Positions 2,220 through 49,124 of a DNA stretch of 50,037 nt are shown here, piece after piece. The notes under the pieces were generated by a model, which was given only the letters and a program-made list of their open reading frames with translations, was not told where the DNA came from and made no database searches. The DNA is from Candidatus Altimarinota bacterium (lineage in GTDB: Bacteria > Patescibacteriota > Gracilibacteria > BD1-5 > UBA2023), in assembly GCA_031423995.1 (NCBI GenBank), contig JANPGO010000007.1:1-50037 (forward strand), written 5' to 3'. Made by a program: the position numbers and the translations under genes. How positions within the stretch are numbered: the stretch's first letter is position 1; every line of letters starts with the position of its first letter.

Positions 2220-5200
2220 CTATTGCATCCATTTACATATATAGGTCATAGAGACAGCATTTGATGATGTAGTATTACAAGTGATACTACTTGCGGTACC
2301 ATTCGCTCGACAATAGAGGGCTGTACTTGCTGGTACTGTGAATGCTGCAGAGCCATTACAACTGAGTGCTACCGATGTACTCGCAGGAACTCCTGTACAG
2401 GTCATAACAGCTGGTGTTGCATTACTGACTGTTGTAGCAGCTGTTGTACAAACTCAAGCTGCACTTATCTGAGTACCTGCTGTTCCTAGCTTGAATGTCC
2501 CATTCACTTCGAGCTGAGAGCTTGGAACAGAGGTCCCACCGATATTTACATTTCCTCCGTATGGATTCATATAGAACGATCAAGCGGTGGTTGCATTGGA
2601 CTTCGCTTGCATAGAGTCATTATCGAACATGATATTCGTCGAGGCATACGAACCAAGTCAGAGGTAGGCTCCCGTTGTTGTCAGTGCAGTAATGGTAGGA
2701 AATGTACTCCCTGAGAGTGTCACCATACTCGATGGCTTCGTCGTACCAAAACCTATCATACCACCACCTGAGATTGCCTGAAGCTGAGAGTTGAATCCAG
2801 TATTGATAAAGAAATATTCATTATGATTGGCTGGAACCGTGAGAACTCGTTGCCATGGAGCAGGTGTCTGATACGGAGAATCATTGGTATAGAGTCCTCA
2901 TCCGACCGCACCATTGAATCGTCCACTTCGAGCAAAGAGAGGGGCATCACCTCGTGCACCGAGAGCGAGCTGATATCCATAGGTCGATCCCTTCGCCGTC
3001 ATGGTGAAGGAATTTGCTGGACTCGCAGGAACTCCATAGGTATCATTACCACTACAATTATATGGACTTGTTCCATAGGTTCCATTCCATGAACAGACTC
3101 CTGATGTTCCGTTCTCTCGGAAAAATGGTCCATTATTCGATGTACTCGATCCATCACTCACGACAAATGATTGTGCTGTCGGAATATCGAAGTATTTATT
3201 GTAGTCATAGCTAATCAATCGATTCGCGACATCTGGATCTGGTGTTGGTGGTGAAGATGGATTTCATGCTGTATACACGACGACATCCCCGTTACTTATA
3301 GGAACGACATTTCCTGAAGCATCGACTCCGAGTCCAACACTGGCTCCAGTATAGGTCGTAGAAGTATTACTGAGTCGATTCATACGCAATCCTGAGATAC
3401 CATTGGCTCCACCATCGATATTGAATCGTGCTGTGAGAGCTGCCGACGACCCTGTTCCGATACCGATATTTCCTCCACTTCCATAGATCCAGTTGCCGAT
3501 ATTGAGCTGATTCGATGCTGTATTGCTCGGTACCTGCGCTCCATTCCCGATAGCGATATTGCTCCATCCTGAAGTGATACCACTCCCTGCCATGTACCCG
3601 AGAACAGTATTGTTCGAGGCCGTACTCGTCGCTCCATAGAGCGCATTATGTCCGATGGCAACGTTCCCAGTTCCTGTTCCGAGATTGTAGAGAGATTGTC
3701 CACCGATAGCCACATTATAGTCGGAGCTCGTCGCGACTCGAAGTGCCTGATACCCGATCGCTGTATTCCAGGTTCCATCATTATCATTGTACATGGCTTC
3801 CTTACCGAAGGCTGAGTTATTGAATCCTGAAGTACTCTGGCGGAGTGCCTGATGACCAAATGCTGAGTTGGAATAGCCAGTCGTCATCGTATAGAGTGCC
3901 TCGTTCCCGAATGCAGTATCCGCATTTCCTGTCATACCGATTCTCAGAGCCCCTGCACCCATACCGATATTATTGGTACCACGGAAATTCAGATAGTTCA
4001 CGGACCCTGACCAGATTTCGAAGATACTGGTTGCACCTGTATTTCAGATAGCAACATTCGCACCATTATCATAGAGGAGTGAGTTCATGAGACCATTTCC
4101 ACCTGCACCGAACTTCGTTATATAGTTCGCTGTACCCCCTGTAATTCCTGATGCCGTCGTCGTTCCTGAGAATCCGACTTGCCAGCTCGCAACTCCACTC
4201 GCATCTGAGACAAGGAGTTTTCCGAGCCCCTGGGTTCCATTGATGAGCTGAATCGTACCACCAGACACGGTGAGGAGTTGTCCTGGAGCAGAGGTACCAA
4301 TACCAACATTGGCTCCTGTACCGAGAATGACAGAGTTCGAAACAGAAGCGATAGTATTTGCACCGATAGCAGATGTATTATAGAGTCCATCATAGAGGAT
4401 TCCTGCATTGGTACCAAGTGCTGTATTATTATATCCCGAGAGATTCCCGAGTAGTGTACCACTCCCTATAGCGACATTTCCATATCATGATGTATTGAAT
4501 CCAAGAGCTGTCGACCCGAGTGCAACATTATAATTTCCTGATGTATTCAAGAAGAGTGAGCCGTATCCATTAGCAGTATTATAACTTCCAGTGAGGTTAC
4601 TTTGTAATGCATTGTTTCCATTCGCGGTATTATAGCTTCCTGTAGTATTTCCAACAAGAGTACCTACACCGATAGCAGTATTATTATTTCCTGTAGTATT
4701 CGCGAGCAATGCACCAGCACCTATTGCAGAGTTTAGAAAGCCTGTGGTATTATTTTGCAGATTCGATGCTCCGATAGAGGTATTATAGAATCATGTAGTA
4801 TTCGAAAGGAGCGAACCTGATCACACTGCTATATTAAAATATCCGGTCGTATTCGAGTAGAGCGCACGATATCCGAAAGCAGCATTTCCATTTCCTGTCG
4901 TACTGAATTTGAGTGCCTGATATCCGATGGCAGTTTGATAGTCGACACCTGTGGCGGTATAGAGCGCTTCATACCCCATAGCAACATTTCCTAGACCTAT
5001 CTGATTCTGATTCAGTGATCTCGCTCCGTATGATGTATTATATGAAGCTGTTAGGTTATTATTCTGACTCGTGTATCCAACTGCAGTATTGGCAGCTCCT
5101 GTAGTGATCTGAGTCAATACTCCTCATCCTACTGAGGTATTCTGCGATCATGATGTGAGTGAATTGAGTCCATTGTGTCAGACTGCAGTATTCGCATTTC

Positions 5201-8200
5201 CTGTAGTTATGCTTCCTAGAGTCAGCATACCAATAGCAGTGTTGAATCCAACTGCACCACTTCATCTTCCTATGGTCAATCCGTTGATCACCGCATCCCC
5301 GCCACTGAGGAAGAGGAGCGCCCCTGTCGATGAAGTTGTAGAGAGAATACGGAGTTTCTCAGTATTATTTGTCATCATGATGAGCGGTTGAGCATTGATC
5401 GATCCGATATAGTCATTCGATCCTACCGTGTTTCCTGAGAGAGACCAGTAGGTTCCTGAGAGTGCTGAACTCGTTGATTGCCATGAGCCAATACCCGAAG
5501 CATCTGAGACGAGGAATTTCCCAACTCACTGTGTCCCGTCGATGATCTGGATTGTTCCACCTGAGACGGTGAGTTTCTGTCCTGGAGCAGAGGTTCCGAT
5601 ACCGATATTTCCACCACTTCCGTAGATCCAGTTTCCGATATTGAGCTGATTGGATCCGGTAGATGATGCCACTTGGGCGAAGTATCCGATGGCGATATTC
5701 GATGAACCAGTAGTGATAGAGTATCCTGCAGAATGACCAAGTGCGGTATTGAAGTTTCCCGTGGTATTGGAGATGAGAGAGTACATGCCATTGGCAGTGT
5801 TTTGGTATCCTGTGGTGTTGGAGTAGAGAGCCTGAACGCCATTAGCTGTATTTTGTGCTCCAGTGGTGTTGGAGTAGAGGGCATTGACTCCATCGGAGGT
5901 GTTGTTGACTCCGGTGGTGTTGGAGTAGAGAGCATTCACTCCATTCGCGGTATTCGATGTTCCCGTGCTGTTGGAGAAGAGAGCCCAGACTCCATTCGCG
6001 GTATTGGAGTTTCCCGTGGTGTTGGAGGAGAGAGCATTATGACCATTCGCGGTATTGGAGTTTCCCTTGGTGTTGGAGGAGAGAGCAGAGCGTCCATTGG
6101 CGGTGTTCTGGGCTCCCGTGGTGTTGGAGGAGAGAGCAGAGTTTCCATTCGCGGTATTGGAGAATCCAGTAGTATTCGAGTAGAGTGCCTGGTATCCAAA
6201 TGCTGAATTCGCAACTCCTGTCGTACTGAATTTGAGCGCCTGGTATCCTACAGCAGTCTGAAAGTCGACACCCGTTGATGAATAGAGAGCCTCGGTACCC
6301 AGGGCGACATTTCACGATCCAGTGACATTTGTTCGAAGTGCAGTGTATCCATTTGCGGTATTATTGGATCCTGTGATATTATTAAAAAGGGCATCTCATC
6401 CATTCGCGGTGTTGTAGTCTCCTGTCGTACTGAACCAAAGTGTGTGATATCCATTCGCGGTATTCCAGTTTCCTGCAGTATTAGCAGGGAGCGACCAGGC
6501 TCAATTCGCGGTGTTGTAGTATCATGTAGTATTCGAAAGAAGTGAGTACAAACCATTGGCAGTATTAAAGCCTCCTGTCGTATTGGAAAAGAGTGCTTTA
6601 TATCCGTTCGCGGTATTCCAGTTTCCTGCAGTATTAGAAGAGAGAGCTTGGTAACCCAGAGCGGTATTCGTTGCAAGTTGCCCACTTCCCATACCTACAG
6701 TGATACCATTTATCACCGCATCTCCCCCGTTCATGAAGAAGAGAGCTCCTGTCGATGAAACCGCAGAGAGGATTCGCATCTTCTCTATTCCATTCGTCTT
6801 CATGACGAGATCCTGTCAGTCAGTGGTTCCGAGATAGTTGGTTCCTGCAGTCGTTCCAGCATTTCCTGTCGTACTCCAGTTATTGACCGATGTCGGAACA
6901 ACTTGCCAGGTCGCGAGACCGAGAGCATCGGAGGTGAGGACCTTGTTCACTCATGGAGTTCCACCCTTGATCGTCACTTGACCAGAGAGATAGAGATTGT
7001 TCCATGACTGAGTCGTATTGTTACCGATATCACGGTACGCAAGTGGAGCCGCGAGATCAGGAAGGAGGGATCCTGAGATCGTCACATTGTTCACGGTACG
7101 ATTCACGAAGGTATCCGATATCACCTTCCCCTGTACTGTAATATCACCTGTCACGAGTGCCGAACCAGAGACAGTCAGCTTTTGGCTTGGAGAAGAAGTA
7201 CCAATACCGATATTTCCAGTAGAAAGTGTTGTATTCGCACCATCTACACTGGTACCAAAGATGAGATTTCCGATATTGAGCGTATTGTTGCTCGTCGGCG
7301 TCGGTGTATCGATATCATACCCGAGGACGATGTTATTGTTTCCTGTTGTGATCGACTCAGCTGCCTTGTATCCGAGAAATATATTGTTAGAATAATCCGT
7401 TGCACTAATACCAGCACCAGCAGAGTTTCCGAGAGCAACATTATTCGATCCCGAGCGATTACTCGTAAGTGCTGATACTCAGAGTCAGACGTTATCACTT
7501 CCTGTTGTATTACTCGCCAGACCAGCTATAGATATGTTATTGTTTCCCCATGTATTCTGCTGTAGAGCAGCGGCTCCAAGGGCAACATTATTCGATCATC
7601 AGCGATTTGCCCAGAGAGTGAACCATCCGAGAGTTGTATTCGTCGTACCTGTACCATTCGCTGCATTTGAATTTGGTCACACGATCGTTGATCCTGCTGT
7701 TGCCGATGGGATTCCTGCACCTATCATCAAGCTCGATGAATCTCCACCGAATTTTACCCCGTTCACGAGGATATATCCACCCGTGATCGTGAGTACCTGA
7801 GAGGAGCTCGCGAGCCTCATACGTTCGACTCCATTTGTCTTGAATACTACATCTTGTGCATTATTGCTTCCGATATAGTCATTCACACCGACCGTGTTCC
7901 CTGAGAGAGACCAGTAAGTTCCAGAGAGTGATGCAGTGGTCGACTGCCATGAGGCAACCCCAGCAGCATCTGAGACGAGGAATTTCCCGGCTCACTGAGT
8001 CCCATCGATGATCTGGATGGTACCACCCGAGACGGTAAGTTTTTGCCCGGGAACTGTGGCTCCGATACCGATATTTCCTCCACTTCCATAGATCCAGTTG
8101 CCGATGTTGAGCTGATTGGATAGAGTTGTCGATGGGAGATTCGTATTTGCTCAGAGGGCAATATTGTTTGATCCTGTTGTTATATTGTATGCAGCACCAC

Positions 8201-11200
8201 TTCCGATCGCTGTATTGTTATTTCCTGTCGTATTCGAGTAGAGTGAATTGTATCCAAATGCAGCATTTCCAAATCCTGTAGTACTCTTGTTCAATGCTTG
8301 GTATCCCACTGCCGTTTGATAATCAGAACCAGTCTGTGTATAGAGTGAGTAGCCACCGAGAGCGACATTTCCAGATCACGTCTTATTAGCTAGAAGAGCT
8401 GAGTCTCCCATTGCAGTATTAAATCATCCGGTAGTATTTCGACCAAGTGAGTCAATACCAACAGCGGTATTATTCGATCAGCTCGTATTCGCCAAAAGAG
8501 CCTGCATACCGATTGCGGTATTATACCATCCAGTGGTATTTTGCTGAAGTGCAGTTGCACCATTTGCGGTATTATATCTTCCTGTAGTATTTCCGAGGAG
8601 GGCAGTATCACCAATTGCAGTATTCCAAACTCCTGTCGTATTACGGTTAAGTGTGTAGTAGCCGATTGCGGTATTCTTTCAGAAAGCTGTATCTGTATTT
8701 GATGCGAGTGTCTGGTATCCGATGGCGGTATTATTTACTAATTGTCAGCTTCCTCGTCATACTGTAAAGCCGTTGATCACAGCATCCCCACCACTGAGAT
8801 AGAGAAGAGCTCATGTCGATGAAGTTGCCGAGAGGATTCTTGCTTTCTCCACTCCGTTTGTTTTGAATACCAGATCCTGTCAGTCAGTGGTACCGACGAA
8901 GTTCGTCCCTGCAGACGTCCCACTATTCCCTACGATATTCCATGAGTTTGGAGAAGCAGGAACTATCTGCCAGCTTGCAATACCACTGGCATCTGAGGTG
9001 AGAACTTTATTCACTCACTGAGTCCCGTCGATGATCTGGATCGTTCCTCATGATACAGTGAGTTTCTGTCATGGTACAGTCGCTCAGATACCGATATTCC
9101 CAGCACTTCCATAGATCCAGTTACCGATATTGAGCTGATTCGATGCGGTTCATGAAGGGACTTGAGCATCATATCCGATCGCTATATTACTCGATCCTGT
9201 AGTGATACCAGAGCCAGCTCGGTAACCAATACCGAGGTTCTGAGTACCCGTCGTACTATTTCTGAGTGCCTGGTATCAGATAGCAGTCTGGAAGCTGACA
9301 CCTGTAGCGCTATAGAGAGCTTCATTTCCTACTGCAACATTGCCAGAGCCAATAGTATTGGAGTAGAGGGCAACGAATCCATTCGCAGTATTGTTCGATC
9401 CTATGGTATTGAGTCCAAGTGACCATCAACCATTCGCAGTATTATTCATTCAGTTGGTATTTTGCTGAAGTGCGATCGCTCCGTTCGCAGTATTCCAGTT
9501 TCAGGATGTATTGAATTGAAGCGTACTCGAACCAAGAGCTGTATTAAATGATCCTGTGCTATTCCCTTCGAGTGCAGAGAGTCAGATTGCAGTATTCAAG
9601 TTACCACTCGTATTGAGCCTGAGACTAGAGCCTCATATTGCAGTATTAAATATTCATGTAGTATTGGTACTGAGAGCAATATTCCCAAGAACAGTATTTG
9701 AGGCAGATTGCCCACCTCCCATACCTACAGTCATTCCATTGATCACGGCATCTCCAGCATTCACGAAGAGAAGTGCTCCTGTTGATGAAGTCGCAGAGAG
9801 GAGACGCATCTTCTCAATTCCATTCGTCTTGAAGACGAGAGCCTGGGCATCGGTTGTCCCGACGAAGTGGGTACCAGGACTCGTTCAGGCATTTCCGAGT
9901 ACGAGCCATGCGTTCGAGGCAGCAGATGCAGGTTGCCAACTCGCGACACCATTTGCATCAGAAATGAGGATTTTATTGAGTCATTGACTACCGTCGATGA
10001 TCTGGATCGTACCACCTGAGATCGTGAGCTTTGCTCCAGGAGTCATCGTCCCGATACCGACAGAGCCACTCGCCATACCAGTGGTTCCCATACCAGAACC
10101 ATAGATGACGTTTCCGAGAGAGAACTGATTGTCTTGATTCGTATTCCCGACTGCAGAGCTCCCGAGATAGATGTTATTATTCCCTGTATTCATACCAGTT
10201 CCTGCAGCGGTACCAAGGGCGACATTATAGTTTCATTGCATATTGTAGCCTGCTGATTGTCATCCGATAGCTACATTATTGAATCCGCTCATACTCTGCC
10301 CTGCACCACTTCCACCGAGAGTCGTATTGTAGTATCCATTCGCTCAGATTCCAGCAGAGTAACCTCAGACGAAGGAGTTGTAGGTTCATGAACTACTGAC
10401 TCATACAGCATATCCACCGAGTGCGGTATTTTGTTGTCAATTCATATTCCATCAAGCAAAATATCAACCGAGAGCGAGATTCTGATATCCTTTCATAAAC
10501 ACTCATACTTCATATCCTCAGATTGCAGTATTCAGTGTGCCTGACATCAAGAATCCTGGCCATCATCATCAGATAGCTACATTCTCATATCCATTCATGA
10601 ACCATCATGCATAGGCTCAACCGAATGTTGCGTTATAGTTTCATAACATTTGATAACCTGGACTAAATCATCCTATTCCAGTCTGGTTGGTTCATGTCGT
10701 CTGAAATCATGCACCATTTCACAAGAAGATACTATTCGTAAACGTTCATGTATATGCACCTACTCATGTGATATTTCCATTCGTATTGAATCTCAGCCTC
10801 TCAACTCCATTCGTCTTGAGCACCAAATCATTAGCATTATTCGATCCGATGAAGTCATTGACCCCCACAGTATTTCCTGAGAGTGACCAGTAGGTTCATG
10901 AGAGAGCTGCACTCGTTGATTGCCATGTACCAATACCTGAGGCATCTGAGACGAGGAATTTCCCCGCTCATTGAGTTCCATCGGTGATCTGGAGCGAGCC
11001 CGAGACCGTGAGTTTCGAGGTCGGTGAGGAGGTGCCAATACCGATATTTCCTGTGGAGATGGTGGTATTGGTTCCATTGATACTCGTACCGAAGATGAGG
11101 TTTCCGATATTAAGTGTATTCGAGCTCGTTGGTGTCGGCGTATCGATATCATATCCGAGGACGATGTTATTCGCACCCGTCGTGAGAGCATCTCCTGCCT

Positions 11201-12209
11201 GATATCCGAGGAGAACATTATTCGAGGAGGTGAGGACATATCCAGCTCGATGTCAGAAGACACTATTATTCGAGCCCGCTGAACTGAACTTCATAGACTG
11301 TGTTCAGACAGAAGTATTATATGAACTCGCTGTATTTGTCTGTTGACTCGAGAATCAGACTGCGGTATTATAATTTCCATTGATAAGATAGGTCATCACT
11401 CCTCATCCGAGAGAAGTATTATAACTTCCTGTGGTGACACAACAGAGACCATTATGACCGACAGCAGTATTCGCATTTCCTGTCGTGATAGAGTCAAGAG
11501 TAAATGCTCAAAGTGCCGTATTAAACGCTACAGCGCTACTTCATCTCCCGACTCGCATATCTCCGATGAGGAGATCTCCGCCAGTAAAAGCAATAACTTG
11601 TCCACTTGCATTCATCGTGGAGAGGATTCGCATTTTTTCTGTATTATTCGTCTTCAGTACGAGATCCTGGGCATTGATCGATCCGAGGAAGTCATTTGTA
11701 CCTATAGTATTTCCCGAGAGTGACCAGTAGGTTCCTGAGAGGGTTGCGCTCGTCGTCTGCCAACTCGCGAGTCCTCCTGCATCGGAGACGAGGAATTTCC
11801 CGAGTCCTGGAGTACCTCAGGTGATCATGATCTGACCATTCACCTGGAGTTTCCCTGAACTTGCAGATGGCGTCATACCGATTCCGATATTTCATCCTGC
11901 ATTGTAGAGGTTAGCACTCCCTGTCCAGGTTGTCCCATTGTGGTAGATTGTATATCCAAGCGCACCCGTCATATTGAGTCATGTTGCGGATGGAGTGATA
12001 CAGATCGGCACTCATGTGGAGGTGAATCCTCGGATCACATCACCATAGATAGGACATCCAGGGAAGATATTATCGAAATAGGTTCGATAGGTTCCCCCGA
12101 CGATCTCTCAGGCTGGTGCACCAGTTGGGTAGGTGAGTGCCGATGCGAACGAGATGAGCGAGACAGAGAGTATGAGGGAGAGAGCAAGTGCCAAGAAGCG
12201 GTGACGCAT
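2220..12209 (-). CDS. Giant secreted fibre/adhesin-like repeat protein, 3329 aa
   Basis: ATG at 12207-12209 opens MRHRFLALALSLILSVSLISFASA, a signal-peptide-like N-terminus. I walked the frame codon by codon. About 85 in-frame TGA codons, no TAA or TAG until TAG at 2220-2222. All track ORFs that carry the repeat motifs are in this frame: 2220, 2898, 3264, 4044, 4485, 4821, 5526, 6522, 6951, 7677 and 9981. Content: 17-aa repeats of the form NTANGxxALxSNTTGxx, and about nine neck/knob motifs NQLNIGNWIYGSGGNIGIG..P.QKLTVSGGTIQIIDGTQG.GKFLVSDA.G.ASWQ. Confidence 0.85.
5736..6160 (-). repeat. Tandem 51-bp (17-aa) coding repeat array inside the giant gene, about 8 copies
   Basis: ggtgttggagtagag recurs every 51 nt. 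The array encodes ...SNTTGxxNTANGxxALY... units. It is the most regular part of a repeat pattern that runs through the whole gene. Confidence 0.8.
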
Positions 12210-12226
12210 AGGAGTGAAGTGAGGAA

Positions 12227-13573
12227 TTACTGAATGACAGAATCGAGACCAGGAGGAGGATCAGCAGAGACAGCGCTATTGAAGTCTATTACCATAGACG
12301 ACTTCTCGAACCTGACATCCGTGAATGGAACGGATTTCTGCGTTGGATCGGTATAGTCATAGGTACGGAAATAGTTGAGATCATACACCTGTGAGAGGAG
12401 GGTCGTACAGTTCGAGATGACAACGGGACAGACAGATGGTGTCTGGAGGGCACCCCCGATCGTATTTTTTGAAATAATTCATCACTTGATATATATCTGT
12501 TGGGCTGGGATATTCCATGCTCCAGAGGCAATATACGATGTGATCGGATCTGTTGTCACCGTTTTTTCTCAGGAATAGAGCGATCCCTCAGCATAGATAA
12601 ACGCATAGATTTGATTCACATTCTTCGTGATGATGATATTTCCTCCATTTCCATTCGCATCCTTCAGTGCAATGATCGCTCGCGGATGCGTATCAGTCGG
12701 ATCACCGATGAGACTCTGGTTCAAGATGATATCTCGACCCTCGATGATGATCGAACGCTTCCCTGTCGGCCAGATCCATCCGAATGAGGTATCATAGTCA
12801 AAGGATTGTCCTTTCTGGTAGATGAAGTTTGTACCATTCCCTGATATGAGGTTTGCTGTTGGGATATTTCTCGAGAGCAGTGCGATATTCTTGCGAATCG
12901 TATTGAGGATTTCTGATTGTGAGACATTGCTGAAGACATATCAGACATTCTGGTTGGTCATGTTATAGATACGGCTTCCCGCGATATTTCCGATGACTGC
13001 GATCTTTCCGATAAAGTTGACACTGACCCCGTCGAAAGTGATACCTGTCTGATCAAGTGCTCCCGAGTCAACAGGAGAAGCAGCATAGGCATAGAAAGGG
13101 ATATAGCCAAGTGCACTACTGTGACCAAACCCCTCAAGTACTCATCGTGCTGGATTGTAGTAGACACCCGATCCTCCATCGATGAATGATCCTGAGAGTG
13201 CTATCCATCCACCATTCTGTGACCAGGCAAACCCTGTTGCTGGACAGACGATACTCGTATCTCGGAAGACTGTATCAGGACAGACGATACGAGCCCTCTC
13301 GACACTTCATTCCTGATGATCCAGCCTGACCCAACCGATCTTGCTCACCCAGAAGACTCCTGTGAGGTACCCATCAGTATCGATCATAGCAGCCGAACCA
13401 CTATAGGATGTGCCGATGTCGAATGTTACCTTTCCAGGATGACCTGCAATCCATATATCATCAGGGGTGAATGAGCCTTTAATACGAAAATACTGTCCTG
13501 CACTCATCACGAAGAAGAATGAAAGACTGGATACTAGAAAAATGATGATCGCAAATAGGACTTTACGACTCAT
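12227..13573 (-). CDS. Secreted or membrane-anchored protein with G(F/Y)AWS..GW-type repeats, 448 aa
   Basis: ATG 13571-13573 opens MSRKVLFAIIIFLVSSLSFFFVMSA, a signal or anchor sequence. I walked the frame by hand: 7 in-frame TGA codons, then TAA at 12227-12229. Motifs GVFWVSKIGWVRL and GFAWSQNGGWIAL. C-terminal part contains ...IIIEGRDIILNQSL..IIALKDANGNGGNIIITKNV..IYIKGGIISKNTIGGA. The stop lies 17 nt upstream of the giant-gene start. Confidence 0.75.
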
Positions 13574-13721
13574 AAAAAATGAATACTATTTGTTGAGGAA
13601 TGGAAAAAAGTGAGCTGAAAAACTGAGACTTCGCTTGATAGTACAGAAAAACAGGGAAAAATCACAAAAAAAAATATTCCACAATTCATTTTTTTATTTA
13701 TTATATAGATTTATCCAGCGT

Positions 13722-14495
13722 ATGCCTATATTCGAAATTCATATTTTCAGTCTCACACTCGCCCCAACATGGTATTGACTCATGTACGCATTGGGATTTT
13801 TTCTCTGTTATGAATATATGAAACGTCAGGCGAGATTGAGAAATGGAGATATTGATACACTGCTCTTCTTTATCTTCCTTGGAGTGATACTCGGGGGGAG
13901 ATTTGGCTATGTATTTCTCTACAATGCATCATACTACCTTGGGCATATCTGAGAAATACTCATGCCGTGGAAATGAGGAATGAGTTTCCATGGTGGAGCT
14001 ATTGGAGTCATCATTGCTGTCTTTCTCTTTGCATGGAAACACCGGTATGCTGTTTTCGATATTTCTGATCCTCTTGTCACGATACTCCCTGGAGCACTCG
14101 GGCTCGGACGTATAGGAAACCTTATCAATCATGAGCTCCTCGGTTTCTCTGCCTACACTTGACCATTCGGCATAATAGAGGGTGGTGTGAGGCATTTTCC
14201 AAGCCCACTTCTTGAGGGATTTTTGGAAGGCATAATTCTCCTCGTTCTAATGTTTCTCTGGAAGAAATATGAAACAAGGTACGAGAGAAAACCCTGATAT
14301 GCTTCTGCATACTTTCTTCTCTTCTACGGAATATTTCGGATATTTTCAGAGTTTTTTCGCCTTCCTGATGCTCATATAGGGTACCTCTTCGGAACCAATT
14401 GGGTCACTCTCGGAATGATCTATAGCCTCCCCATGCTTCTCTGAAGTGGTATTGTCTGGTACTATGCAAGAAAGAGGTGAGCTGAAAGCCGATAG
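13722..14495 (+). CDS. lgt: Prolipoprotein diacylglyceryl transferase
   Basis: Frame open from ATG 13722 to TAG 14493-14495, with 7 TGA codons. Motifs [27 protein letters not shown] and [13 protein letters not shown]. Multi-pass hydrophobic profile. Confidence 0.85.
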
Positions 14496-14630
14496 GAATT
14501 AGATATAGTTGAGTGAACTGGATGAAAAAAATCAAGAAAGTGCCATCTAGAGGAAAGTATGGATCTTTATTTCATTCTCTACTGTCTTGTTATTCAACGC
14601 TCTCTCCTATCTGCTATTCTCTATCTGCTC

Positions 14631-15140
14631 CTATCTCACTCCCATCATTGCGGATCATGGGAGGAAAAATCCAATACCCGTCATATTCTTGATCTTCACA
14701 AAGAGATTCCAGTACGATATTGCCCTATTGACACTCGCAAAATGAGATCGCATAAGACGCTCATACTCGATGATAAAGTCTCGTATATAGACAAAGTACT
14801 CGTCCTTCTGAACAGACTTCGTATGCATAGAAAGTTCCATGAGAAAGAGGAAGTCATTCTGGATCTTGGCATTGAGTCCGAGTATGTCATAGAGTGTTCG
14901 AAATTCTTGGATCATAGCCTGAGTATGGAGACGTATGATATGATCGAATGACTCTTCTCGATCAATATACGGTCTCATGACTTCGATGAGTGCGGGGATT
15001 TTTCCGATCTTTCCGAGAAAGAGATCAATCAGTATTGATTCCTGAACGGCAACATATTTTGAAAGCACGAAAAAGAAGATTGCATAGATACTGAGGAACC
15101 CGATAGCAATACTGAGAATGACGATTCCAAAAGAAAACAT
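14631..15140 (-). CDS. LemA-like single-pass membrane protein
   Basis: N-terminal TM helix (FGIVILSIAIGFLSIYAIFFFVL) followed by a helical domain with LemA-like spacing (IDLFLGKIGKIPALIEVMRPYIDRE). One TGA is read through. The true stop is TAG at 14631-14633. The family assignment is weak. Confidence 0.5.
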
Positions 15141-15269
15141 ATCATTACTATAGGAAGAAATTCCTCTTTTTCAAGAAAGTTCTTGAAAAAAGTAAAAGTC
15201 TTCGTATTCTGAATTCTGGATAAAATCATTGAGACTTCTCTAAAAATTAGAAAAATCCATACAACAATC

Positions 15270-16703
15270 ATGAAACGATACGATATTCGCCTCTCCCTGA
15301 TAACATTTACGATTGAAATCGCCGGCATTATTGGACTTTTTTTTGTGAGCTACTTTCTCAGGTCAATCACGGACGGTATCCCATTCGTCCAACTTCGAAT
15401 ACCCTTTATCAGTGAAGCACAATTTATCCCCTTTGTCCTCTATTGAGTACTCTTTTGGTGAGCAATATTTTCCAATGCTCGACTCTATACCTATGTGCCC
15501 GACAAGCCAATCATCGAAACACTGAGAGAGACAATTTCTCGAAGTATACTTTGGTTTTTTATCTATATTGGTTTTGTCTATCTCTCGACAGGATTTCTCT
15601 TCGAGAAAGAAATACCACGACTCATCATCCTCTATGTCTGGATCTTCTCGACCACTTACTCAGTCATCCTCCGACTTTCACTCGCAGCGATCATGAACCT
15701 CTTGTATGAAAGATGAATACTTCCTCGTAAAAAAATCCTCGTCATCGTACCAAAAGAATGAGAATCATATACTCTCCTTCCGCATCCATCGATCGAATAT
15801 ATCTATCAAGATGCGAGTCAGTATGGAGCAATTTTTCGATCTATCAGAGAAAAGTCTGTCGATGCTGTTCTCTCACTCCTCTGAAAAAATGAAACGAAGA
15901 AAACCCTAGAAGTCATCAAACTCTGTGAAATCTATGGTATCAGTTACTCGTATCCGAAGATACTCCCATCAGTATTAGAAATTCCAAAACGAGATACAAT
16001 CATCTGAGGCATTCCAGTCGTAGAGAGTACCTCTGTATCGATCACTCATTGGGAACGTATCATCAAGCGTACTGGGGATATTATTGTTTCAATTTTTTGA
16101 ATTATCACTCTCTCTCCCCTCTTCTGTATTATTGCACTCATGATACAGTTCGAAGATCCCTCATGACCAATACTCTTCAAAAACCGCCGTGTATGACTCT
16201 GAGGAAAAGAATTTTTCCTCTATAAATTCCGTTATATGTACTGGAAATATAGTATCAAGGATGCCTATGGTGTGAAGGAAAATGAAGATAGTGCACTCCA
16301 GTATGAAGAACATCTCAAAGAATCCAACGATACTCGTGACTGACCGCTCTACAAGATCACTGATGATCCACGGCGGATGAAGGGAGGAAGAATTCTCGAG
16401 AGACTCTCCCTCGATGAACTCCCTCAGCTCTTCAATGTCCTCAGAGGTGATATGTCTCTCGTCTGACCCCGACCGCATCAGCCTCGTGAAGTCAAGGAGT
16501 ATGAAGAGCATCATTACCAAGTTCTGACTATTAAGCCAGGTATCACTGGGATGGCGCAAGTCTATGGACGAGAGGAAAATACTTTCGAGGAAGAGGTTGG
16601 TCTCGATACCTACTATATCGAGCACTATTCCCCGATACTCGATCTCCTCATCCTCATACGTACAGTATTTGTCGTTTTGCAGCGAGCCTTCAGGAGGAAA
16701 TAA
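15270..16703 (+). CDS. Polyprenyl-phosphate sugar phosphotransferase (WbaP/EpsL-type 'bacterial sugar transferase')
   Basis: Frame walked from ATG 15270 to TAA 16701-16703. N-terminal TM segments. C-terminal catalytic domain motifs: [65 protein letters not shown]. Confidence 0.85.
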
Positions 16704-26237: not shown

Positions 26238-27212
26238 ATGACTCTTTCCACTGTTCTCATTTTTGTTACGATTATTTTTATACTTGGTACACTCTTTTGA
26301 AGTTTCTCAACTGTGCTTATAGAACGCTGGAAATATGGAAAATCAGGTATTGTGGCAGGAAGAAGCGAGTGTCCACTCTGTCACCATACACTCTCTGCAT
26401 GAGAATTGATACCTCTCTTTTCTTATATATTTCAATGAGGAAAATGTCGAGGATGCAAGAAGCATATATCATTCTGGTACCCTCTTACAGAGGTATTTTT
26501 CTGAATAATATTTCTTGTAATGTCATACATAAGTATATCGATGCACAATGAACTTATAAGCATAGCTACTCTTATCCTTCTCATACTCTGATTCATTACA
26601 GGAGTCTATATGCTCTATGATATTCGCTATACTGAAATTCCTGATCAGATACTTGTGCCTTGAATAGTATGATATAGTATACTTATCATACTATGATATT
26701 ATCTCTCCCCAGTTCGTTCCTATTTATTTTGAATTAATACGTATCAGAGTTATTCGGCTTTCATGATCGACCATTTTCGATGAGCAGTTCTCATATATTG
26801 ATTTTTCTATCTGCAGATTCTCATTCCAGGATGATGGCATCTCTTGAGGAAATGAAACATTCGAGCCTTTATAGAACTTCTTCTTTCATTTTTTGTGTTC
26901 CCATTTGAACTCATTCTTTCAATGTTTTTTAAAAAGAAGGATACTCCCTGAGAGTCTGGGGAAGACATTCCAGCATGGATAGGTTGAGGTGATTTGCGTG
27001 TAGCGCTCTTTATTGGACTCACCCTCTGAACTATTCATACACTGAGCACCTTATTTTTCGCCTATATAACAGGATCGATAGTATGAGTCGCTCTTATAAT
27101 TCAAAAAAGGAAATGATGAAATTCTCACATTGCATTCGGTCCATTTCTCTGAATAGGATGGATGATCTCTATGCTCTTATATATCAGTATTCTCAACTTT
27201 ATTTCCCTATAG
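26238..27212 (+). CDS. pilD: Prepilin (type IV leader) peptidase, A24 family
   Basis: Zinc-ribbon-like CPLCHHTL..GKCRGCKK in the N-terminal part, then WYPLTE. Two aspartate motifs: YDIRYTEIPD and G-TGA-GDLRVALFIGL. FGPFL near the C-terminus. About 8 hydrophobic segments. Frame walked by hand (22 TGA codons) to TAG 27210-27212. Confidence 0.85.
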
Positions 27213-44089: not shown

Positions 44090-45865
44090 TTAGCTTTCCC
44101 TCTTACTATGGAGGAGCATCTCAAGTGCACTTTCTATTGATGGAGCGGAAGTTATTGCTCCTGTATTTACAAAAAATATTTGATCTGCATTTTTGATCGT
44201 ATTGAGTCTGTGTGCGACAATAACACGGGTTGTTGTATTGGGAAGTTTATCCAGAACATCTTCGAGGAGTTGCTCAGTGATGGTATCAATATTCGCCGTT
44301 GCTTCATCGAGAATAAGGAGTTCTGGTTTTCTGAGAATGGCCCGCATAAAGGCGATCAGTTGTCGCTGACCAAGACTCATAGATATTCCTCAATGCGTGA
44401 CGATGGTATCAATTCCATCAGCAAATCGGACAAAGAGTGCATCGAGTCCTGAATCCGAAAGTGCCTGATCTTGTTCTTTCTTCGAATCTGGACCATATTC
44501 ACTATTGCCATAAAAGATATTCTCTCGAATTGTTCCAGAAAAAAGAAAAGGCTCTTGGAGAATAAATCCAATCTTATTCGTACGTTCTTCGGGTATATAT
44601 GTACGAATATCCCTTCCTCGAAAGAAGATTATTCACGATGCTGGATCATAGAGTCGTGCCATGAGGGAGGCAATCGTTGTTTTTCATCCTCCTGTTGGTC
44701 CAATAAGAGCATAGGTTTTTCATGGGAACAAAGAAAAACTGCATGATCTCAAAATATTTTTTCCTTCAGGATAGTGGAAAGATACACTTCGAAATTCCAA
44801 GAGTGGAACAAGATCTCCTTTCTCATATAAATCCTCTCAATGTTCGATACGAGTGAGATCCGATGTGAGTGAGAGAACTTCGGAAATGCGATCAAGTGAT
44901 GCGAGTGCAATCTGGAAGGATGACCATGCAGATGCAAGTTGCCTGAGTGGTGTGTAGAAATTATTCACATAGAGCTGGAATCCTATGAGAAGCCCTATTG
45001 TCAGATTTCCCTGTTGAACGAGATAAATACCAAAACAAAGTGCTGTCAGTTGTGCGATATTGGATGCAAATCCATAGAGAGCAATGAAAAGAGTGCTCGC
45101 GACTCAGGATGCTATGTTTCATCGATAGTTTTGCGTATTTGTTTCTTGGAATTTCTTTCTGAAATAATCGAGACGATTGAAGGCAACGACCACCTTGAAA
45201 TTGGCTATACTTTCCTGAATTTCCGAACTCATATTGCCAAGTGTTTGGAGACTTTTGAGGTTTTTCTCCTTGACCCATGGGGAGACAAATTGGGTAATTA
45301 TGAGGACTCAGAGTGCTGGAAGGAGGCTCAATGCTCCAAGCTCAAAACTCAGGATGAGCATGAATATGCCTGTACCAGCCATGAGAAAAACATTGCTAAT
45401 AAACTGGATGAGTCCTTGGGCAATGAATTGATTGAGTTTATCGGTATCATTGTTGATACGAGAGATGAGGTCACCAGCCTTATTTTGATGGAAGAAAGCA
45501 ACGGGAAGATCCTGAAGCTTCGTAAAGAGGGCATTTCGAAGATTATAGAGGACTCGACGTCCGACGCTTCCCATGGATTTTACCTGAATATAACTCGCGA
45601 GACTTCCGATAAGATAGATCACAAACAAGATCACCGAAAAATACAAAATACCTGAGAAATCCTTTTCTAGAATAGAGGTATCAATAATATGGCTCATAAT
45701 TACTGGTGCAATCAGTGTCGCAAGCGAACTCACGATAACTGCAAAGAGCGTCATCCATATGTTTTTCTTTTCGCCAATCAAAAACGGAGAGAATTTCTTT
45801 ATTGACTGGAAAATCGACTCCTTTTTTGATGCTTTCGTGATACTAAGTGTGTAGTCTTTAGGCAT
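44090..45865 (-). CDS. ABC exporter half-transporter (TMD-NBD) with a consensus catalytic site
   Basis: Six-helix TMD. Walker A GPTGG-TGA-KTT. Signature-like MSLGQRQ. Walker B LLILDEATANID with Asp-Glu intact. H-loop VIVAHRL. Frame walked by hand (8 TGA codons). TAA at 44090-44092. ATG 45863-45865 overlaps the upstream gene by 8 nt. Confidence 0.85.
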
Positions 45866-47591
45866 TGATACTCTGTTGTGAGGAATAAATCTGCACATAT
45901 TCTGGAGAACTCGTCATGAGTTCTCTGTGTATCCCCTGCGCAAGCATCTCTCCTTCCATGAGGAGTATGATCTGTTCATAGTGCTCTATCGGGGCAATCT
46001 TCTCAGTAATAGAAATAAGTGTGATATTCGGATAGTTCTTTCGAAGATTTTCAAGGATTTTTTTCTGAGTTTCTCCATCGAGTCGTGCTGTGAAGTCATC
46101 GAGAAAGAGGATTTTCGGATCCACTGCTAGTGCTCGTGCGAGCATAATGCGCTGTTTTTGTCATCATGAGAGACTTGACCCTCGCTCAGATACAACTGTA
46201 TCAAGGTGCTCCGGAAGACCCTCGATGAAGTCTCGAAGTTCGGCCGTATCGATTGCCTTCTCGATGGCACTATCATCAATATCATTCCTGAAGGCGATAT
46301 TTTCGCGAAGACTCAGATTGAAGATGCTACTCTCCTGGAAGTTAATCCCAATCTGAGGATAAAATCATTCTCTGTCGATCACTGTGAGATCTATACCATC
46401 ATAGGAAATCGTTCCAGAACTTGGTTCGAGGAGTCAAGAGAGGAGATAGAGAAGTTGTGTCTTCCCTGCAGCAGTTGGCCCCATGATGGCTGTACTCGAT
46501 CCTGATGCTATGGAGAAAGTGATATTTTTGAGTATTTGCTTTTCCCCAAGAGTCAGTGATACGTCCTGAATCTCGATCGAACCGTGAAGGTCTGGGAGAA
46601 TATTTCGTTTTTTATGTTTTTTTTCGAGAGTGAGGACTTCGCGAATTCGACCATATGATGCCGTTGCCTGAGCGATAGAATTGCTCGTGAATCCGAGAAT
46701 AATAATCGGAAATATGAGAATCGCGAGATAGGAATTGAATGCGACGAAGTCTCCAAGAGTCATACTCCCCGTGATGACAAAATGCCCACCAAGCATCAAA
46801 ATGACCAGAGTTGCGATATTGGAAGTAAATGTCACTATTGGAATGAGGGTTGCGAAGAGACTCAAGATCGAAAGACCAATCTCCTTGGCTTGAGTATTGA
46901 GTTCGATGAACTTTCTATATTCATATGTTTGAGAATTGAGAAGCCGTATGAGGGCTGCTCCGAGGATACTCTCATTGATCGCATTATTGAGTCGATCGAT
47001 ATTTTCCTGTGAACTCTTGAAGAGGAGACGAACTCGCTTGAACACGAGTGCGAAAGCAATACCAATACAGGGCATGATGAGGAAAACTGCGAGTGCAAGT
47101 TTCCAATTCATGAGAAGGAGGAGTACTCCAGACCCGAGAATCATGAAGATCGAAGAGACGATCGATGCAATTGCTTGAGAAATAAAGGTTTTGACGCCAT
47201 CAACATCGGAGGTGAGATTTGTGAGGAGCTTAGCCGAACTTAAGGTTTCGACCGTACTGAAATCCTGTTCCGATATTTTTGCAATGAGCTCGGCTCGGAG
47301 GTCTTGTGCGACTCGTTCAGAGGCATAGATCTGAGCAATATTCTGAGCATAGACGAGGAAGAAGAGAAAGAGTGTCACTCCTGCAAATGCAGTTACTGTC
47401 CAGATGAGATCAAAATTTCCTATTCCATATGAATCGATTGCAGTAGCAATAATCTTGGGAACCACGAGATTGAGCCCTCCTGAAAGAAGCGTCAAGAGTA
47501 TAATCCCACTGATCATGAGGGAATATGGTTTCAGAAGGGAGAATATATTGGCGGAAGGTGCTGGTAGTTTTTTTTGCATAAAGAAAATCAT
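45858..47591 (-). CDS. ABC exporter half-transporter (TMD-NBD) with a degenerate catalytic site
   Basis: TMD. Walker A GPTAAGKTQ. Signature LS-TGA-TGA-QKQR (46161-46166). Walker B ILFLDDF, where Phe (46092-46094) replaces the catalytic Glu. Start is ATG 47591 (MIFFMQKK) or 47579 (MQKK). TAA at 45858-45860. Confidence 0.85.
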
Positions 47592-47667
47592 TGTATCTGA
47601 AAAGAGGGGAAAAACAATGCACAAAAAAAGTCCGTATTTCTACGAACATAATTGTATTGGATCAAAC

Positions 47668-48353: not shown

Positions 48354-48402
48354 AATATTCATCAGTTTCAGTATAAGTTTCTGTTATAAAGACTTTCTAA
48401 AC

Positions 48403-48436: not shown

Positions 48437-48456
48437 AAAACACTGATGATGACCGT

Positions 48457-48930
48457 CTATCGAGAATGCAGAGTGGTCAGGATAGTCTTGGCACTGGGAG
48501 AAGCGAGATCTCATTGGATGACAGCGATTCCATTTGGAAGGCGAGAATACGCCCGTGGAGTGTCAACCGGAAGTCCTGCATCTATCGTCTCTATCGGGGT
48601 GTCCCGATAAAATGTGACCTGTACTTTTCCATCCTCGGAAACCTTCGTCTCTGATGGCTGTACGGTAACCTGATCAGACTGAGCCGTCTCTCGACTCGCA
48701 TAGGAATCTCACTCTACCGAACGGAAACCGTAGGAGAATGTGTTATTCCAATAAGGAGCTGCGACGGTGATCTTCTTTTCTCATCATCACTGCGGAGCAG
48801 AGAGGAGAGAACTATACGATCAGAAATTATCAGTCGAGTTGTAGATACCAACAAGTACCAGAAGTGTGAAGATCGCTGAGATCCACTCCGATCCTTGATG
48901 ACGTGTATGTCTCTGGATGGGATGTTTCAT
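48457..48930 (-). CDS. Small signal-anchored protein (157 aa), function unknown
   Basis: ATG 48928-48930. TM helix WISAIFTLLVLVGIY. Frame walked by hand. It includes three consecutive TGA codons (48781-48789). TAG at 48457-48459. Confidence 0.55.
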
Positions 48931-49124
48931 AATCTATTTACAAAAAGAGCAAAATAATTATAGCACACTTTCTATGTGAGTCAATTATTTTGAAATATTT
49001 TATATACTTGTCAAATACCAATTCTGCAAAAAGTGGATTTTTTCTGGGAATGAAGTATATTTTGGCTTAGGATAAACAAATCGACTCGATGATAACTGTT
49101 ATTCTATTGCGATTAACTGATTTT

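Follow-up and report, generated by a model that had tools for sequence, protein, structure and literature searches.

In-frame TGA codons, which are read as glycine in the bacterium studied here, accumulate in one segment of a giant gene, forming a genuine cluster that is also seen in relatives. We consider it probable that the cluster reflects ordinary heterogeneity in synonymous codon use within an AT-rich, glycine-rich protein module and carries no special signal. The DNA analysed, referred to below as the window, is a stretch of 50,037 nucleotides, which samples 50 kb of chromosomal DNA from the genome (Table 1). The clustering was first described in a sequence-only reading of the window, and its counts proved exact: the segment contains 23 TGA and 24 GGN codons (12 GGA, 9 GGT, 2 GGC, and 1 GGG), with 23 of the 86 TGAs in the gene (27%) located within 5.3% of its length. 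The frame used for these counts is the minus-strand ORF 2220..12275, which has 86 TGAs; the giant gene itself has 85 TGA and 449 GGN codons. The TGA-TGA-TGA run reported in the segment was also confirmed, and is the only in-frame run of this kind in the giant gene. At the local TGA share of 0.49, each GGG tripeptide has a ~0.12 chance of being encoded entirely by TGA, so the triple run is unremarkable in itself.

A second TGA triplet, which the same reading placed in a small gene at 48781-48789, fared less well. The plus strand at these positions is TCATCATCA, and three consecutive TGAs are found only in the frame of a minus-strand ORF that is marginally gene-like. The codon-usage log-likelihood of this ORF (+0.07) is among the lowest for real genes, with overlapping ORFs at -0.09 to -0.28. 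The fetched loci contain no homologue of the ORF, and Rfam gave no match. From its codon usage, it is plausible that the ORF is a real gene.

Table 1. Features discussed in the text, with positions in the window unless a relative's locus is named.
Feature	Position	Strand	Description
Giant gene	2220..12209	-	3,329 codons plus stop, ATG at 12209; open only if TGA is a sense codon
TGA-rich segment	10233..10766	-	178 in-frame codons, residues 482-659 of the giant protein
TGA-TGA-TGA run	10563..10571	-	encodes Gly-Gly-Gly in '...NVAIGGGWPGF...'
TGA-free stretch	5529..6311	-	ordinary 17-residue (51-bp) repeat array
Conserved 448-aa gene	12227..13573	-	directly upstream of the giant gene, same strand; syntenic in L001
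Small ORF	48457..48933	-	158 codons; its frame reads 48781-48789 as TGA-TGA-TGA
Orthologous module in L001	L001 9512-10621		TGA-rich

Genetic code 25 is in use in the window

Use of genetic code 25 (TGA = Gly) by the genome from which the window derives was confirmed without circularity. The longest ORF in the window is 426 codons under the standard code and 3,351 codons with TGA as sense, and ValRS, ABC-F, MurF, and other proteins are full-length once TGA is a sense codon. At equivalent repeat positions of the giant gene, TGA swaps with GGN. An alignment-column test with 62 ValRS sequences and 958 TGA codons found that 65.5% of the ordinary-codon residues sharing columns with TGA are glycine, while tryptophan is outside the six commonest residues in these columns, which rules out code 4 (TGA = Trp). 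The window's ValRS is 87-92% identical to sequences from Gracilibacteria MAGs, and its best matches (59-92% identity) are nearly all from Candidatus Gracilibacteria or Patescibacteria/Peribacteria, which assigns the window to the Gracilibacteria. The sole tRNA in the window is a tRNA-Asn; the relative L030 encodes a tRNA with anticodon UCA together with G1-C72, C2-G71, G3-C70, and U73, the glycine identity set according to published criteria (PMC8629427). Assignment of UGA to glycine has been validated by proteomics (PMC4032931), and release factor 2 (prfB) was reported to be absent from BD1-5 genomes (PMC6851277). UGA in the Gracilibacteria lineage is an ordinary glycine codon, presumably decoded by tRNA-Gly(UCA).

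Every credible gene in the window contains in-frame TGA, with 332 in ~15,950 codons, and TGA makes up 23% of glycine codons window-wide (332/1,445). The presence of TGA in every gene and at conserved glycine columns matches the published descriptions of code 25 in Gracilibacteria (BD1-5) and Absconditabacteria (SR1), with no difference in the code itself (PMC4032931; PMC6851277; PMC8629427). In the code-25 literature found with a limited search, uneven TGA use within one gene is not addressed. Because every gene already carries TGA, the earlier suggestion that the segment could act as a barrier to standard-code ribosomes, phages, or recipients fails; in addition, published work concludes that phages of these bacteria are not kept out by the alternative code (PMC10746230).

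The TGA-rich segment is a distinct module of a giant repeat protein

The giant protein is built from ~7 modules, each with a conserved neck (consensus GIGT..P..KLTVSGG.IQI.DG.QG.GK.L.SDA.G.A.WQ) and arrays of a 17-residue repeat. The ordinary repeat follows the pattern N-T-A-x-G ... N-T-T-G, with a DNA periodicity of 51 bp. The TGA-rich segment consists of a divergent 17-residue variant, N-x-x-h-G-G-x-x-x-G-x-x-M-x-G, with two extra glycines per unit, and is 26% glycine, rich in aromatic residues, and 43.5% FYMINK residues. It is the sole part of its region that lacks a DNA-level paralogue in the giant gene, is among the fastest-evolving blocks, and is the part least identical to the orthologue in amino-acid sequence. 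A blastn search with the segment as query recovered nothing in the window but the segment itself, with no second copy and no similar sequence that could serve as the template of a diversity-generating retroelement or other template copying. The reading frame is intact through the segment and a relative, L001, independently has the same patch, making an assembly chimera unlikely. RNA structure, an internal promoter, and a terminator were each considered as causes of the cluster and none was found: the segment's mRNA is not unusually structured (fold z-score -0.88), promoter-like sites are not in excess, and there is no terminator in the segment. Long plus-strand ORFs over the giant gene occupy its exact antisense frame and, reasoning from coordinates, are kept open by codon bias, so that an antisense gene was also rejected.

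The N terminus of the giant protein (MRHRFLALALSLILSVSLISFASA) resembles a signal peptide when judged by eye. Pfam searches gave no match (E <= 0.01) in the N-terminal 1,478 aa, the segment, or the C-terminal 651 aa, and neither NCBIfam nor PDB sequence searches with the giant protein gave a match. Its homologues, repeat proteins of tail-fibre-like or adhesin-like type, carry Peptidase_S74, YadA_head, K1-lyase_C, or Gp53-like_C domains; Peptidase_S74 is present in P0104 and P0010, YadA_head only in one distant homologue (P0095), and P0104 joins the segment's module type to an S74 domain. The giant protein shares with tail-fibre-like and trimeric-autotransporter-head-like proteins a homologous neck and 17-residue repeats of Gly, Asn, Thr, and Ala. 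It also shares with tail-fibre-like beta-repeat proteins a predicted all-beta fold: AF2 predicts a regular all-beta structure for the repeat array and, although even the best Foldseek hit was not significant (E = 0.11), the weak neighbours are all beta-helices. In contrast to these proteins, the window protein is far larger (~7 modules, 3,329 aa) and has neither Peptidase_S74 (Pfam, C-terminal 651 aa) nor a YadA head or YadA_anchor (Pfam, NCBIfam). It is probably a secreted beta-repeat protein that acts as a surface fibre or adhesin. The product of the conserved gene directly upstream has a hydrophobic segment at its N terminus and gave no match in an NCBIfam search.

A large extracellular repeat protein with codon usage in its repeats that departs from the genome average has been described previously in a Gracilibacterium, in a gene with a PTD 9-mer repeat, a GAC/GAT shift, and hypervariation within the population (Sieber et al, 2019; PMC6851277). 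The window gene resembles that gene in these general respects but has 17-residue units and a shift between TGA and GGN.

Glycine density and TGA share in the segment

TGA is ~6-fold denser in the segment than in the window, a difference that decomposes into ~2.9x glycine density (47/178 codons are glycine codons, compared with 1,445/~15,950 in the window) and ~2.1x TGA share of glycine codons (23/47, or 49%, compared with 332/1,445). The cluster is the product of these two ordinary factors. The first follows from the architecture of the module: with four glycines per 17-residue repeat rather than the two of ordinary repeats, it has glycine codons at 2.9x the average density of the window.

The second factor stands out within the gene. 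When TGA and GGN labels were permuted within it, the observed maximum of 23 TGAs in 47 consecutive glycine codons exceeded that of each of 20,000 permutations, for which the mean was 13.4 and the highest value 21. For this genome, a TGA share of 49% is not extreme. A scan of the window that adjusts for local non-glycine GC content and neighbouring bases, and is corrected for scanning, gave a probability of 0.013-0.026 for a maximum of at least 23 anywhere, which is nominally significant and not extreme. When the 132 blocks of 100 codons in the window are ranked by composition-adjusted z, the one that contains the segment comes 5th (2.69), and TGA usage is overdispersed in general, with a block z-variance of 1.6-1.8. 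Whole genes in the window reach shares of 41-57%, with 20/35 (57%) in 26238..27212 and 41% in 14559..16703, and in AT-rich relatives TGA is the majority glycine codon (65-83%). The sequence-only reading had allowed that the density might lie within normal dispersion, and for the TGA share it largely does, except for a residual excess that is replicated in L001.

Dependence of TGA use on base composition and neighbouring bases

Of the glycine codons, TGA is the richest in AT, and how often it is used tracks base composition. Relatives of the window's genome span GC contents of 23-55% and TGA shares of 4-83% of glycine codons. The relationship between genomes, logit(share) = 3.72 - 13.05 x GC, takes the share from ~5% to ~80% as the GC content of Gracilibacteria falls from ~50% to ~24%, and the slopes within genomes are similar (-9.1 in the window and -11.3 in L001). 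Along the giant gene, TGA share decreases with the GC content of non-glycine codons (rho = -0.68, p = 8e-5). The TGA-rich patch is AT-shifted in both the window and L001, at four-fold sites (A3 0.41-0.44, compared with 0.28-0.30) as well as in amino-acid content; the segment itself has a non-glycine GC of 0.37 and a four-fold A3 of 0.44. In every lineage that carries it, the module forms an island shifted toward AT at all three codon positions. Neighbouring bases also play a part, with TGA disfavoured after T-ending and favoured after A-ending codons: among 15,012 glycine codons from 45 genomes, TGA share falls to 0.49x the genome mean when the preceding codon ends in T and rises to 1.54x when it ends in A.

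These dependences resemble GC-driven synonymous codon usage, or directional mutation pressure (Muto & Osawa, as cited in PMC8629427), and intragenic heterogeneity of codon usage: TGA share follows GC with similar slopes between and within genomes, and both synonymous and non-synonymous sites of the patch are shifted toward AT. The segment differs in a 1.7-1.9x replicated excess beyond GC and neighbouring bases, which in relatives is found at module-specific glycines. Composition and neighbouring bases explain only a small part of the rise above the window-wide share, with ~11 TGAs expected in the segment at the window-wide rate, 12-14 when both are included, and 23 observed. Non-glycine GC differs little between the segment (0.37) and the other genes of the window (0.385), yet the TGA share of those genes is only 27%. 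An AT-rich block of the giant gene, codons 2501-2600 (non-glycine GC 0.325), has 1 TGA in 19 glycine codons, and composition is therefore not sufficient.

Several further candidate causes were rejected. Gly-Gly dipeptides and avoidance of GGAGG-like runs fail because an adjacent glycine has little effect, at 1.15x with one such neighbour and with a joint-model coefficient near 0; in doublets of glycine codons, the first and second positions are equally often TGA window-wide. Local glycine density, which might act through tRNA balancing, has no effect on TGA use. A general G->T mutational signature does not fit, as the four-fold sites of the patch gain A and not T.

An AT shift at all codon positions, together with the lowest amino-acid identity to the orthologue, could also arise if the module had been recombined in from an AT-richer member of the Gracilibacteria, where about half of glycine codons are TGA, and had not yet ameliorated. 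The range of GC content and TGA share among relatives could accommodate such a donor, and the homologue in L082 lacks the module and holds a different one at the patch site, showing that module content is variable. We nonetheless regard this mosaic origin as very unlikely. No donor-like sequence was found: L001 was the only locus above 35% identity, and targeted protein searches for the module gave only P0001 and P0104. In three lineages, the same module has a high TGA share and TGA positions that are randomised, which makes this an old and stable state. The change toward the flanks is gradual (0.54-0.65, then 0.29, 0.23, and 0.10).

The TGA excess is replicated in relatives

The module was found in three lineages, those of the window, L001, and L083; scans of genome contigs and metagenome contigs with the module alignment had no yield. 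After adjustment for composition and neighbouring bases, a 1.7-1.9x TGA excess remains in the segment and is seen again in the L001 orthologue, with 23 TGAs observed and 13.9 expected in the window (z = 3.0) and 20 observed and 10.6 expected in the orthologous module of L001 (z = 3.7); all 150 control blocks stay at or below z = 2.95. In L083, the module has 21 TGA and 35 GGN codons, compared with 1 TGA and 16 GGN in the adjacent neck and S74 domain. In L082, a homologue without the module has few TGAs at the corresponding site. The regional TGA shares of the window and L001 are correlated along the whole giant gene (rho = 0.56, p = 0.0025). Apparent clustered genes in L033 and L071, from a 37-gene scan, were wrong-frame junk ORFs.

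This replication largely refutes the reading in which the segment is simply the most extreme stretch expected in any 50-kb window of such a genome, singled out because it is extreme. The modest adjusted scan probability, the overdispersion of TGA usage, and the presence of other blocks that exceed the segment's adjusted z are all compatible with chance. However, the L001 patch was not picked by the reader and has the higher z, the L083 module shows the same contrast with its flanks, and the correlation between orthologues extends along the whole gene. Chance combined with selective attention is accordingly the least credible of the explanations we considered.

The enrichment is replicated and its individual codons are not. 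In the alignment of the window and L001 modules, 19-20 of 41 aligned glycine columns are TGA in each genome, the TGA/GGN state differs at 19 of the 41, and statistically TGA placement in one genome is independent of that in the other (OR 1.3, p = 0.76). Between the window and L001, four-fold sites are essentially saturated, and the memory of TGA state decays about as fast as that of four-fold sites. Together, these observations indicate that the enrichment persists at the level of the region and is not passed on codon by codon. The proposal that the segment is old and has drifted from GGA to TGA cannot be the whole story, given that L001 has the same share with independent TGA placement.

The sequence-only reading attributed the skew to repeat modules of different ages. 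The link to module identity holds, in that the TGA-rich stretch is a distinct, divergent, AT-shifted, and fast-evolving module; the part of the argument concerning age does not. As reported, the stretch at 5529..6311 is free of TGA (0 TGA and 37 GGN in 261 codons), and with a local non-glycine GC of 0.467 the composition model predicts 5.4 TGAs (P(0) = 0.003; longest-run permutation p = 0.028). However, its repeat copies are 63-75% identical and therefore old, not recently amplified, and the L001 region aligned to it does carry TGAs.

TGA at module-specific glycines

Within the module, TGA is concentrated at some glycines. Pooled over the three lineages, it occupies 35/53 module-specific and 15/63 family-wide glycine positions (Mantel-Haenszel OR 5.4, CMH p 1.4e-5), a contrast that owes most of its strength to L083, in which duplication links the repeat units, and that has a CMH p of 0.035 without L083. 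In the repeat register, which sets offsets 5 and 9 against 4 and 14, L083 has TGA at the same two offsets in 13/16 cases and at the other two in 0/18; the counts are 14/21 and 8/25 in L001 (p = 0.037) and 8/16 and 7/20 in the window alone, where the four offsets barely differ (p = 0.5). The repeat units of L083 are 72-80% identical in DNA, which suggests that they arose by duplication. A related tendency is seen in ValRS, in which TGA is 1.5-1.7x over-represented at lineage-specific glycine columns and at 0.96x in conserved ones. In the giant-gene alignment of the window and L001, TGA is used at 24.7% of variable and 18.3% of conserved glycines (p = 0.15), with no preferred exchange of TGA with Trp or Arg codons. 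Young glycines, or volatility, were rejected as the sole cause, as the effect amounts to only 1.5-1.7x in ValRS and falls short of significance in the giant-gene pair. For the residual excess, we infer that module-specific glycines, which would be less constrained and often replaced, sit near the AT-biased mutational equilibrium, whereas ancient family-wide glycines may be held more at GGN. Duplication of TGA-bearing repeat units could add to the enrichment in some lineages.

A modified form of the module-history idea in the sequence-only reading assigns duplication a larger part. In this founder effect, the module was amplified from a unit with TGA at its two extra glycines and the TGA-free array from a unit without TGA, so that what is seen today is a memory of these units that fades slowly. 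The offsets shared by the similar units of L083, their enrichment in L001, and an array that is emptier of TGA than composition predicts all fit this history. We consider it unlikely, however, because the offsets barely differ in the window, where the module units have no detectable DNA-level similarity, and the copies of the TGA-free array are old. Moreover, TGA positions are independent between the window and L001, and since TGA memory decays like that of four-fold sites, which are saturated between the two, it should have been lost at this divergence, and yet both genomes hold a share of ~47-49%.

The same register preference, common to L001 and L083, and the replicated excess beyond composition could instead point to selected codon choice, in which slower or ambiguous reading of UGA at given glycines paces folding of a beta-solenoid or yields Gly/Trp micro-heterogeneity. 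Rare peptides with UGA read as Trp were reported from a BD1-5 proteome (PMC4032931), and ambiguity of UGA and UGG through U34 wobble has been noted (PMC8629427). We find this highly improbable. TGA is common, at 23% of glycine codons in the window and as the majority codon in relatives, and thus is not obviously slow to decode; the window itself has no register preference; aligned TGA positions are not conserved; alignments show no Trp/TGA exchange; and local glycine density has no general effect on TGA use. The earlier suggestion of a translational pacing element is likewise unsupported, with TGA far from the rarity expected of a programmed pause (it reaches 41-57% of glycine codons in some genes), individual positions not conserved between the window and L001 when the orthologues are compared, and mRNA that is not unusually structured. 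The cluster is probably without a function of its own: it is no barrier, and nothing points to pacing of translation.

Implications for the use of a reassigned codon

With ordinary synonymous heterogeneity as the preferred explanation, the finding as it stands matters little beyond providing a worked example of TGA as an ordinary synonymous glycine codon, the use of which tracks composition and neighbouring bases both between genomes (~4% to 83% of glycine codons) and within a gene. In practice, it also bears on annotation. Gene calling with code 11 shatters TGA-dense modules and calling with code 4 mistranslates them as poly-Trp, so that they are nearly invisible to protein-level homology searches; the public entries for P0001 and P0104 have W where glycine belongs. 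The replicated TGA excess at module-specific glycines would, if selected, bear on position-specific roles of reassigned codons. There is a slim chance that UGA itself is selected at the module-defining glycines in the three lineages, with slow or ambiguous Gly/Trp decoding tuning the folding of rungs or the micro-heterogeneity of a surface module. If this were true, a reassigned stop codon would carry information beyond 'glycine'.

The TGA cluster combines high glycine density with a raised TGA share

The giant minus-strand gene contains a TGA-rich segment (10233-10766) in whose 178 codons the sequence-only reading had counted 23 in-frame TGA and 24 ordinary glycine codons (GGN). These counts are exact, and the TGA-TGA-TGA at 10563-10571 is confirmed as the sole in-frame TGA triplet run of the enclosing ORF (2220..12275), 23 of whose 86 TGAs lie within the segment. 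The TGA-free stretch at 5529-6311 also stands, with 0 TGA and 37 GGN codons. Local clustering in the gene is far above chance, with the maximum of 23 TGA per 47 consecutive glycine codons exceeding all 20,000 permutations in a within-gene test. A second triplet run, reported in a small gene at 48781-48789, is weakly supported: the plus strand there reads TCATCATCA, and three TGA codons occur solely in the minus-strand ORF 48457-48933, whose codon usage scores as marginally gene-like and for which no homologue was found. In the surrounding ~1 kb (48130-49090), which has no Rfam match, there are three unconvincing, mutually overlapping ORFs, with gene-like codon usage in that ORF only; the region may be non-coding or may hold a small gene that evolves fast.

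Two factors multiply to give the cluster, which is real: a module dense in glycine and an elevated share of one ordinary synonymous codon. The segment has 0.129 TGA per codon versus 0.021 in the window, a 6.2-fold difference made up of 2.9-fold glycine density (26.4% versus 9.1%) and a 2.1-fold share of TGA among all glycine codons (49% versus 23%). Whole genes in the same window reach TGA shares of 41%, 50%, and 57%, a range that includes the segment's 49%, and AT-rich Gracilibacteria have shares of 65-83%, far above it. Trained on the other genes of the window, a model predicts 15.7 ± 3.1 TGA for the segment and 139 for the giant gene, which is TGA-poor overall with 85 observed. This deficit largely vanishes when the higher GC of the gene is taken into account (100-103 expected). 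The 100-codon block with the segment has a composition-adjusted z of 2.69 (rank 5 of 132 blocks), and simulated scans of the 50-kb window, the part of this genome that the analysis covered, under a composition and neighbour-base model gave P(max ≥ 23) = 0.013-0.026.

TGA as a glycine codon

Under the standard code the window is without long ORFs; when TGA is read through, the 3,351-codon minus-strand ORF and full-length housekeeping genes appear, and GGN and TGA interchange at equivalent positions of the giant-gene repeats. The window ValRS is 87-92% identical to those of Candidatus Gracilibacteria MAGs, a clade in which code 25 is established and proteomically validated (PMC4032931; PMC6851277); reading of CGG as Trp has also been reported in some Gracilibacteria (PMC8629427). 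In a non-circular test of the code, we scored the ordinary-codon residues at columns with any of 958 TGA codons in 62 ValRS genes; 65.5% were Gly, and Trp was outside the six commonest residues. The window's only tRNA gene is for tRNA-Asn. A tRNA with anticodon UCA at another Gracilibacteria locus, L030, carries the glycine identity set (criteria from PMC8629427); it is labelled 'SeC' by ARAGORN and adjoins tRNA-Arg(GCG). The proposal that the segment forms a barrier, untranslatable by standard-code ribosomes, fails because in-frame TGAs occur in every gene and because the alternative code is reported not to shut out phages of these bacteria (PMC10746230).

Coordinates of features in the window and comparison loci
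Feature	Locus	Position	Strand	Description
Giant gene	window	2220..12209	-	3,329 aa; signal-peptide-like start
448-aa protein gene	window	12227-13573	-	N-terminal hydrophobic segment; directly upstream of giant gene
448-aa protein gene	L001	5413-6759		as in window
ABC-transporter gene, first of tandem pair	window	44090-45979	-	permease + ATPase fusion; ~120-nt overlap with second
ABC-transporter gene, second of tandem pair	window	45858-47639	-	permease + ATPase fusion
tmRNA (RF00023), near-threshold	window	47668-48121	-	full-length match, 44.8 bits vs gathering score 47, E = 3.8e-16
tRNA, anticodon UCA	L030	7371-7449	+	G1-C72, C2-G71, G3-C70, U73
P0104	L083	3-1211		divergent extra-glycine module fused directly to C-terminal Peptidase_S74 (tail-fibre chaperone); much shorter protein

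The tmRNA was missed by ARAGORN, and two provisional ORFs in the same place (47404-47847 and 47810-48079) were rejected as genes because of this match. The plus-strand ORF 46158-47243, which overlaps the second ABC-transporter gene, was discarded as junk.

Base composition and the choice between TGA and GGN

A single compositional law describes the TGA share both within genes and between genomes. Fitted to 76 Gracilibacteria loci, the between-genome relation is logit(TGA share) = 3.72 - 13.05 × GC of non-glycine codons, and the within-genome slopes are -9.1 for the window and -11.3 for L001, a relative's locus with the orthologous giant gene. Over the clade (L002-L081) the share runs from 4% to 83%, tightly tied to GC, and where genomic GC is ~23-27% most glycine codons are TGA. 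Along the giant gene, aligned with L001 in 27 blocks of 60 columns each, the share follows non-glycine GC (rho = -0.68, p = 8e-5) and, more weakly, amino-acid divergence (rho = -0.44), and regional shares correlate between the orthologues (rho = 0.56, p = 0.0025). In both genomes the segment is AT-shifted, in its four-fold sites as well as its amino-acid content.

The AT-rich block at 4706-5005 (giant-gene codons 2501-2600, counted from the 12275 ORF start; non-glycine GC 0.325) is the opposite outlier to the segment, with 1 TGA among 19 glycine codons (z = -2.9), and shows that TGA share is not determined by composition alone. Among 15,012 glycine codons from 45 genomes, the share is 0.49 times the genome mean if the preceding codon ends in T and 1.54 times if it ends in A; an A as the next base also goes with a lower share (0.76 times). 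These neighbour-base effects could reflect mutational context or decoding context, and local glycine density and adjacent glycines have little influence. In ValRS, glycine columns specific to a lineage show a 1.5-1.7-fold over-representation of TGA, and conserved ones are close to average. The TGA-free array of the giant gene has somewhat fewer TGA than composition predicts (P(0) = 0.003); its proposed recent amplification is refuted by copies that are 63-75% identical.

The TGA-rich module in relatives

L001 (JGI contig Ga0558119_01890; ValRS 88% identical) carries a syntenic orthologue of the giant gene with a module ~50% identical to the segment and likewise TGA-rich. TGA occupies 20 (window) and 19 (L001) of the segment's 41 aligned glycine columns, and the choice of columns is independent between the genomes (OR 1.3, p = 0.76), whose four-fold sites have reached saturation. 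The idea that the segment paces translation finds no support, since the codon is common, aligned TGA positions are independent between the window and L001, and the mRNA is unremarkable; the segment has no terminator, and promoter-like sites are not in excess. The L001 gene (6636-15203) is broken over four frames (6636-9545, 9164-10660, 10624-14580, and 14385-15203), an arrangement that frameshifts, pseudogenisation, or misassembly of the repeats could explain, and its public gene calls under code 4 give products with W at glycine positions.

A model trained on 15,656 glycine codons from 45 genomes, with both patches left out, gave 23 observed versus 13.9 expected TGA in the window (z = 3.0) and 20 versus 10.6 in L001 (z = 3.7), with 0 of 150 control blocks above z = 2.95. 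L082, a homologue locus, has an ordinary array at the module's place and is TGA-poor there. A third case, P0104 of L083, came from a targeted search and is again a code-4 call showing W where glycine is encoded. There are 21 TGA and 35 GGN in its module, and 1 TGA and 16 GGN in the adjoining neck and Peptidase_S74 domain. The module is known from three lineages: the window, L001, and L083. Gene calls at comparison loci are simple longest-ORF calls, with two wrong-frame ORFs left out.

The giant protein comprises ~7 modules, each with a conserved neck and arrays of a 17-residue (51-bp) repeat, ordinarily N-T-A-x-G ... N-T-T-G. Searches with its sequence against Pfam, NCBIfam, and PDB gave no match. 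The homologues of the protein are repeat proteins of tail-fibre-like or adhesin-like type with Peptidase_S74, YadA_head, K1-lyase_C or Gp53-like_C domains, and P0104 links the repeats of the giant protein to tail-fibre-like architecture. AlphaFold2 predicts a regular all-beta repeat for the TGA-free array (pLDDT 67); Foldseek returned no significant structural neighbour, and its weak matches are nearly all beta-helices. The 448-aa upstream protein, which has no NCBIfam match, might function as a partner or as an export factor.

Module-specific glycines

The segment is a divergent, aromatic-rich repeat variant with two extra glycines per unit (N-x-x-h-G-G-x-x-x-G-x-x-M-x-G); it is the sole stretch of its region outside every DNA-level repeat family of the gene, with no second copy elsewhere in the window. 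Pooled over the three lineages, TGA encodes 15 of 63 family-wide glycines (offsets 4 and 14; 24%) versus 35 of 53 module-specific ones (offsets 5 and 9; 66%), a contrast (Mantel-Haenszel OR 5.4, CMH p = 1.4e-5; 0.035 without L083) that is not significant in the window alone (8/16 versus 7/20). In L083, where units share 72-80% identity, duplication contributes to the pattern. Among ValRS orthologues, memory of the TGA/GGN state fades about as fast as four-fold-site memory, and codon-by-codon inheritance therefore cannot explain the enrichment common to the window and L001 at their divergence.

A modest excess persists and is replicated; it is tied to the module and, among relatives, to the glycine positions added in it. 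On the most economical reading, the less-constrained module-specific positions would lie near an AT-biased mutational equilibrium, ancient glycines would be kept more at GGN, and duplication of TGA-bearing units would add to the pattern.
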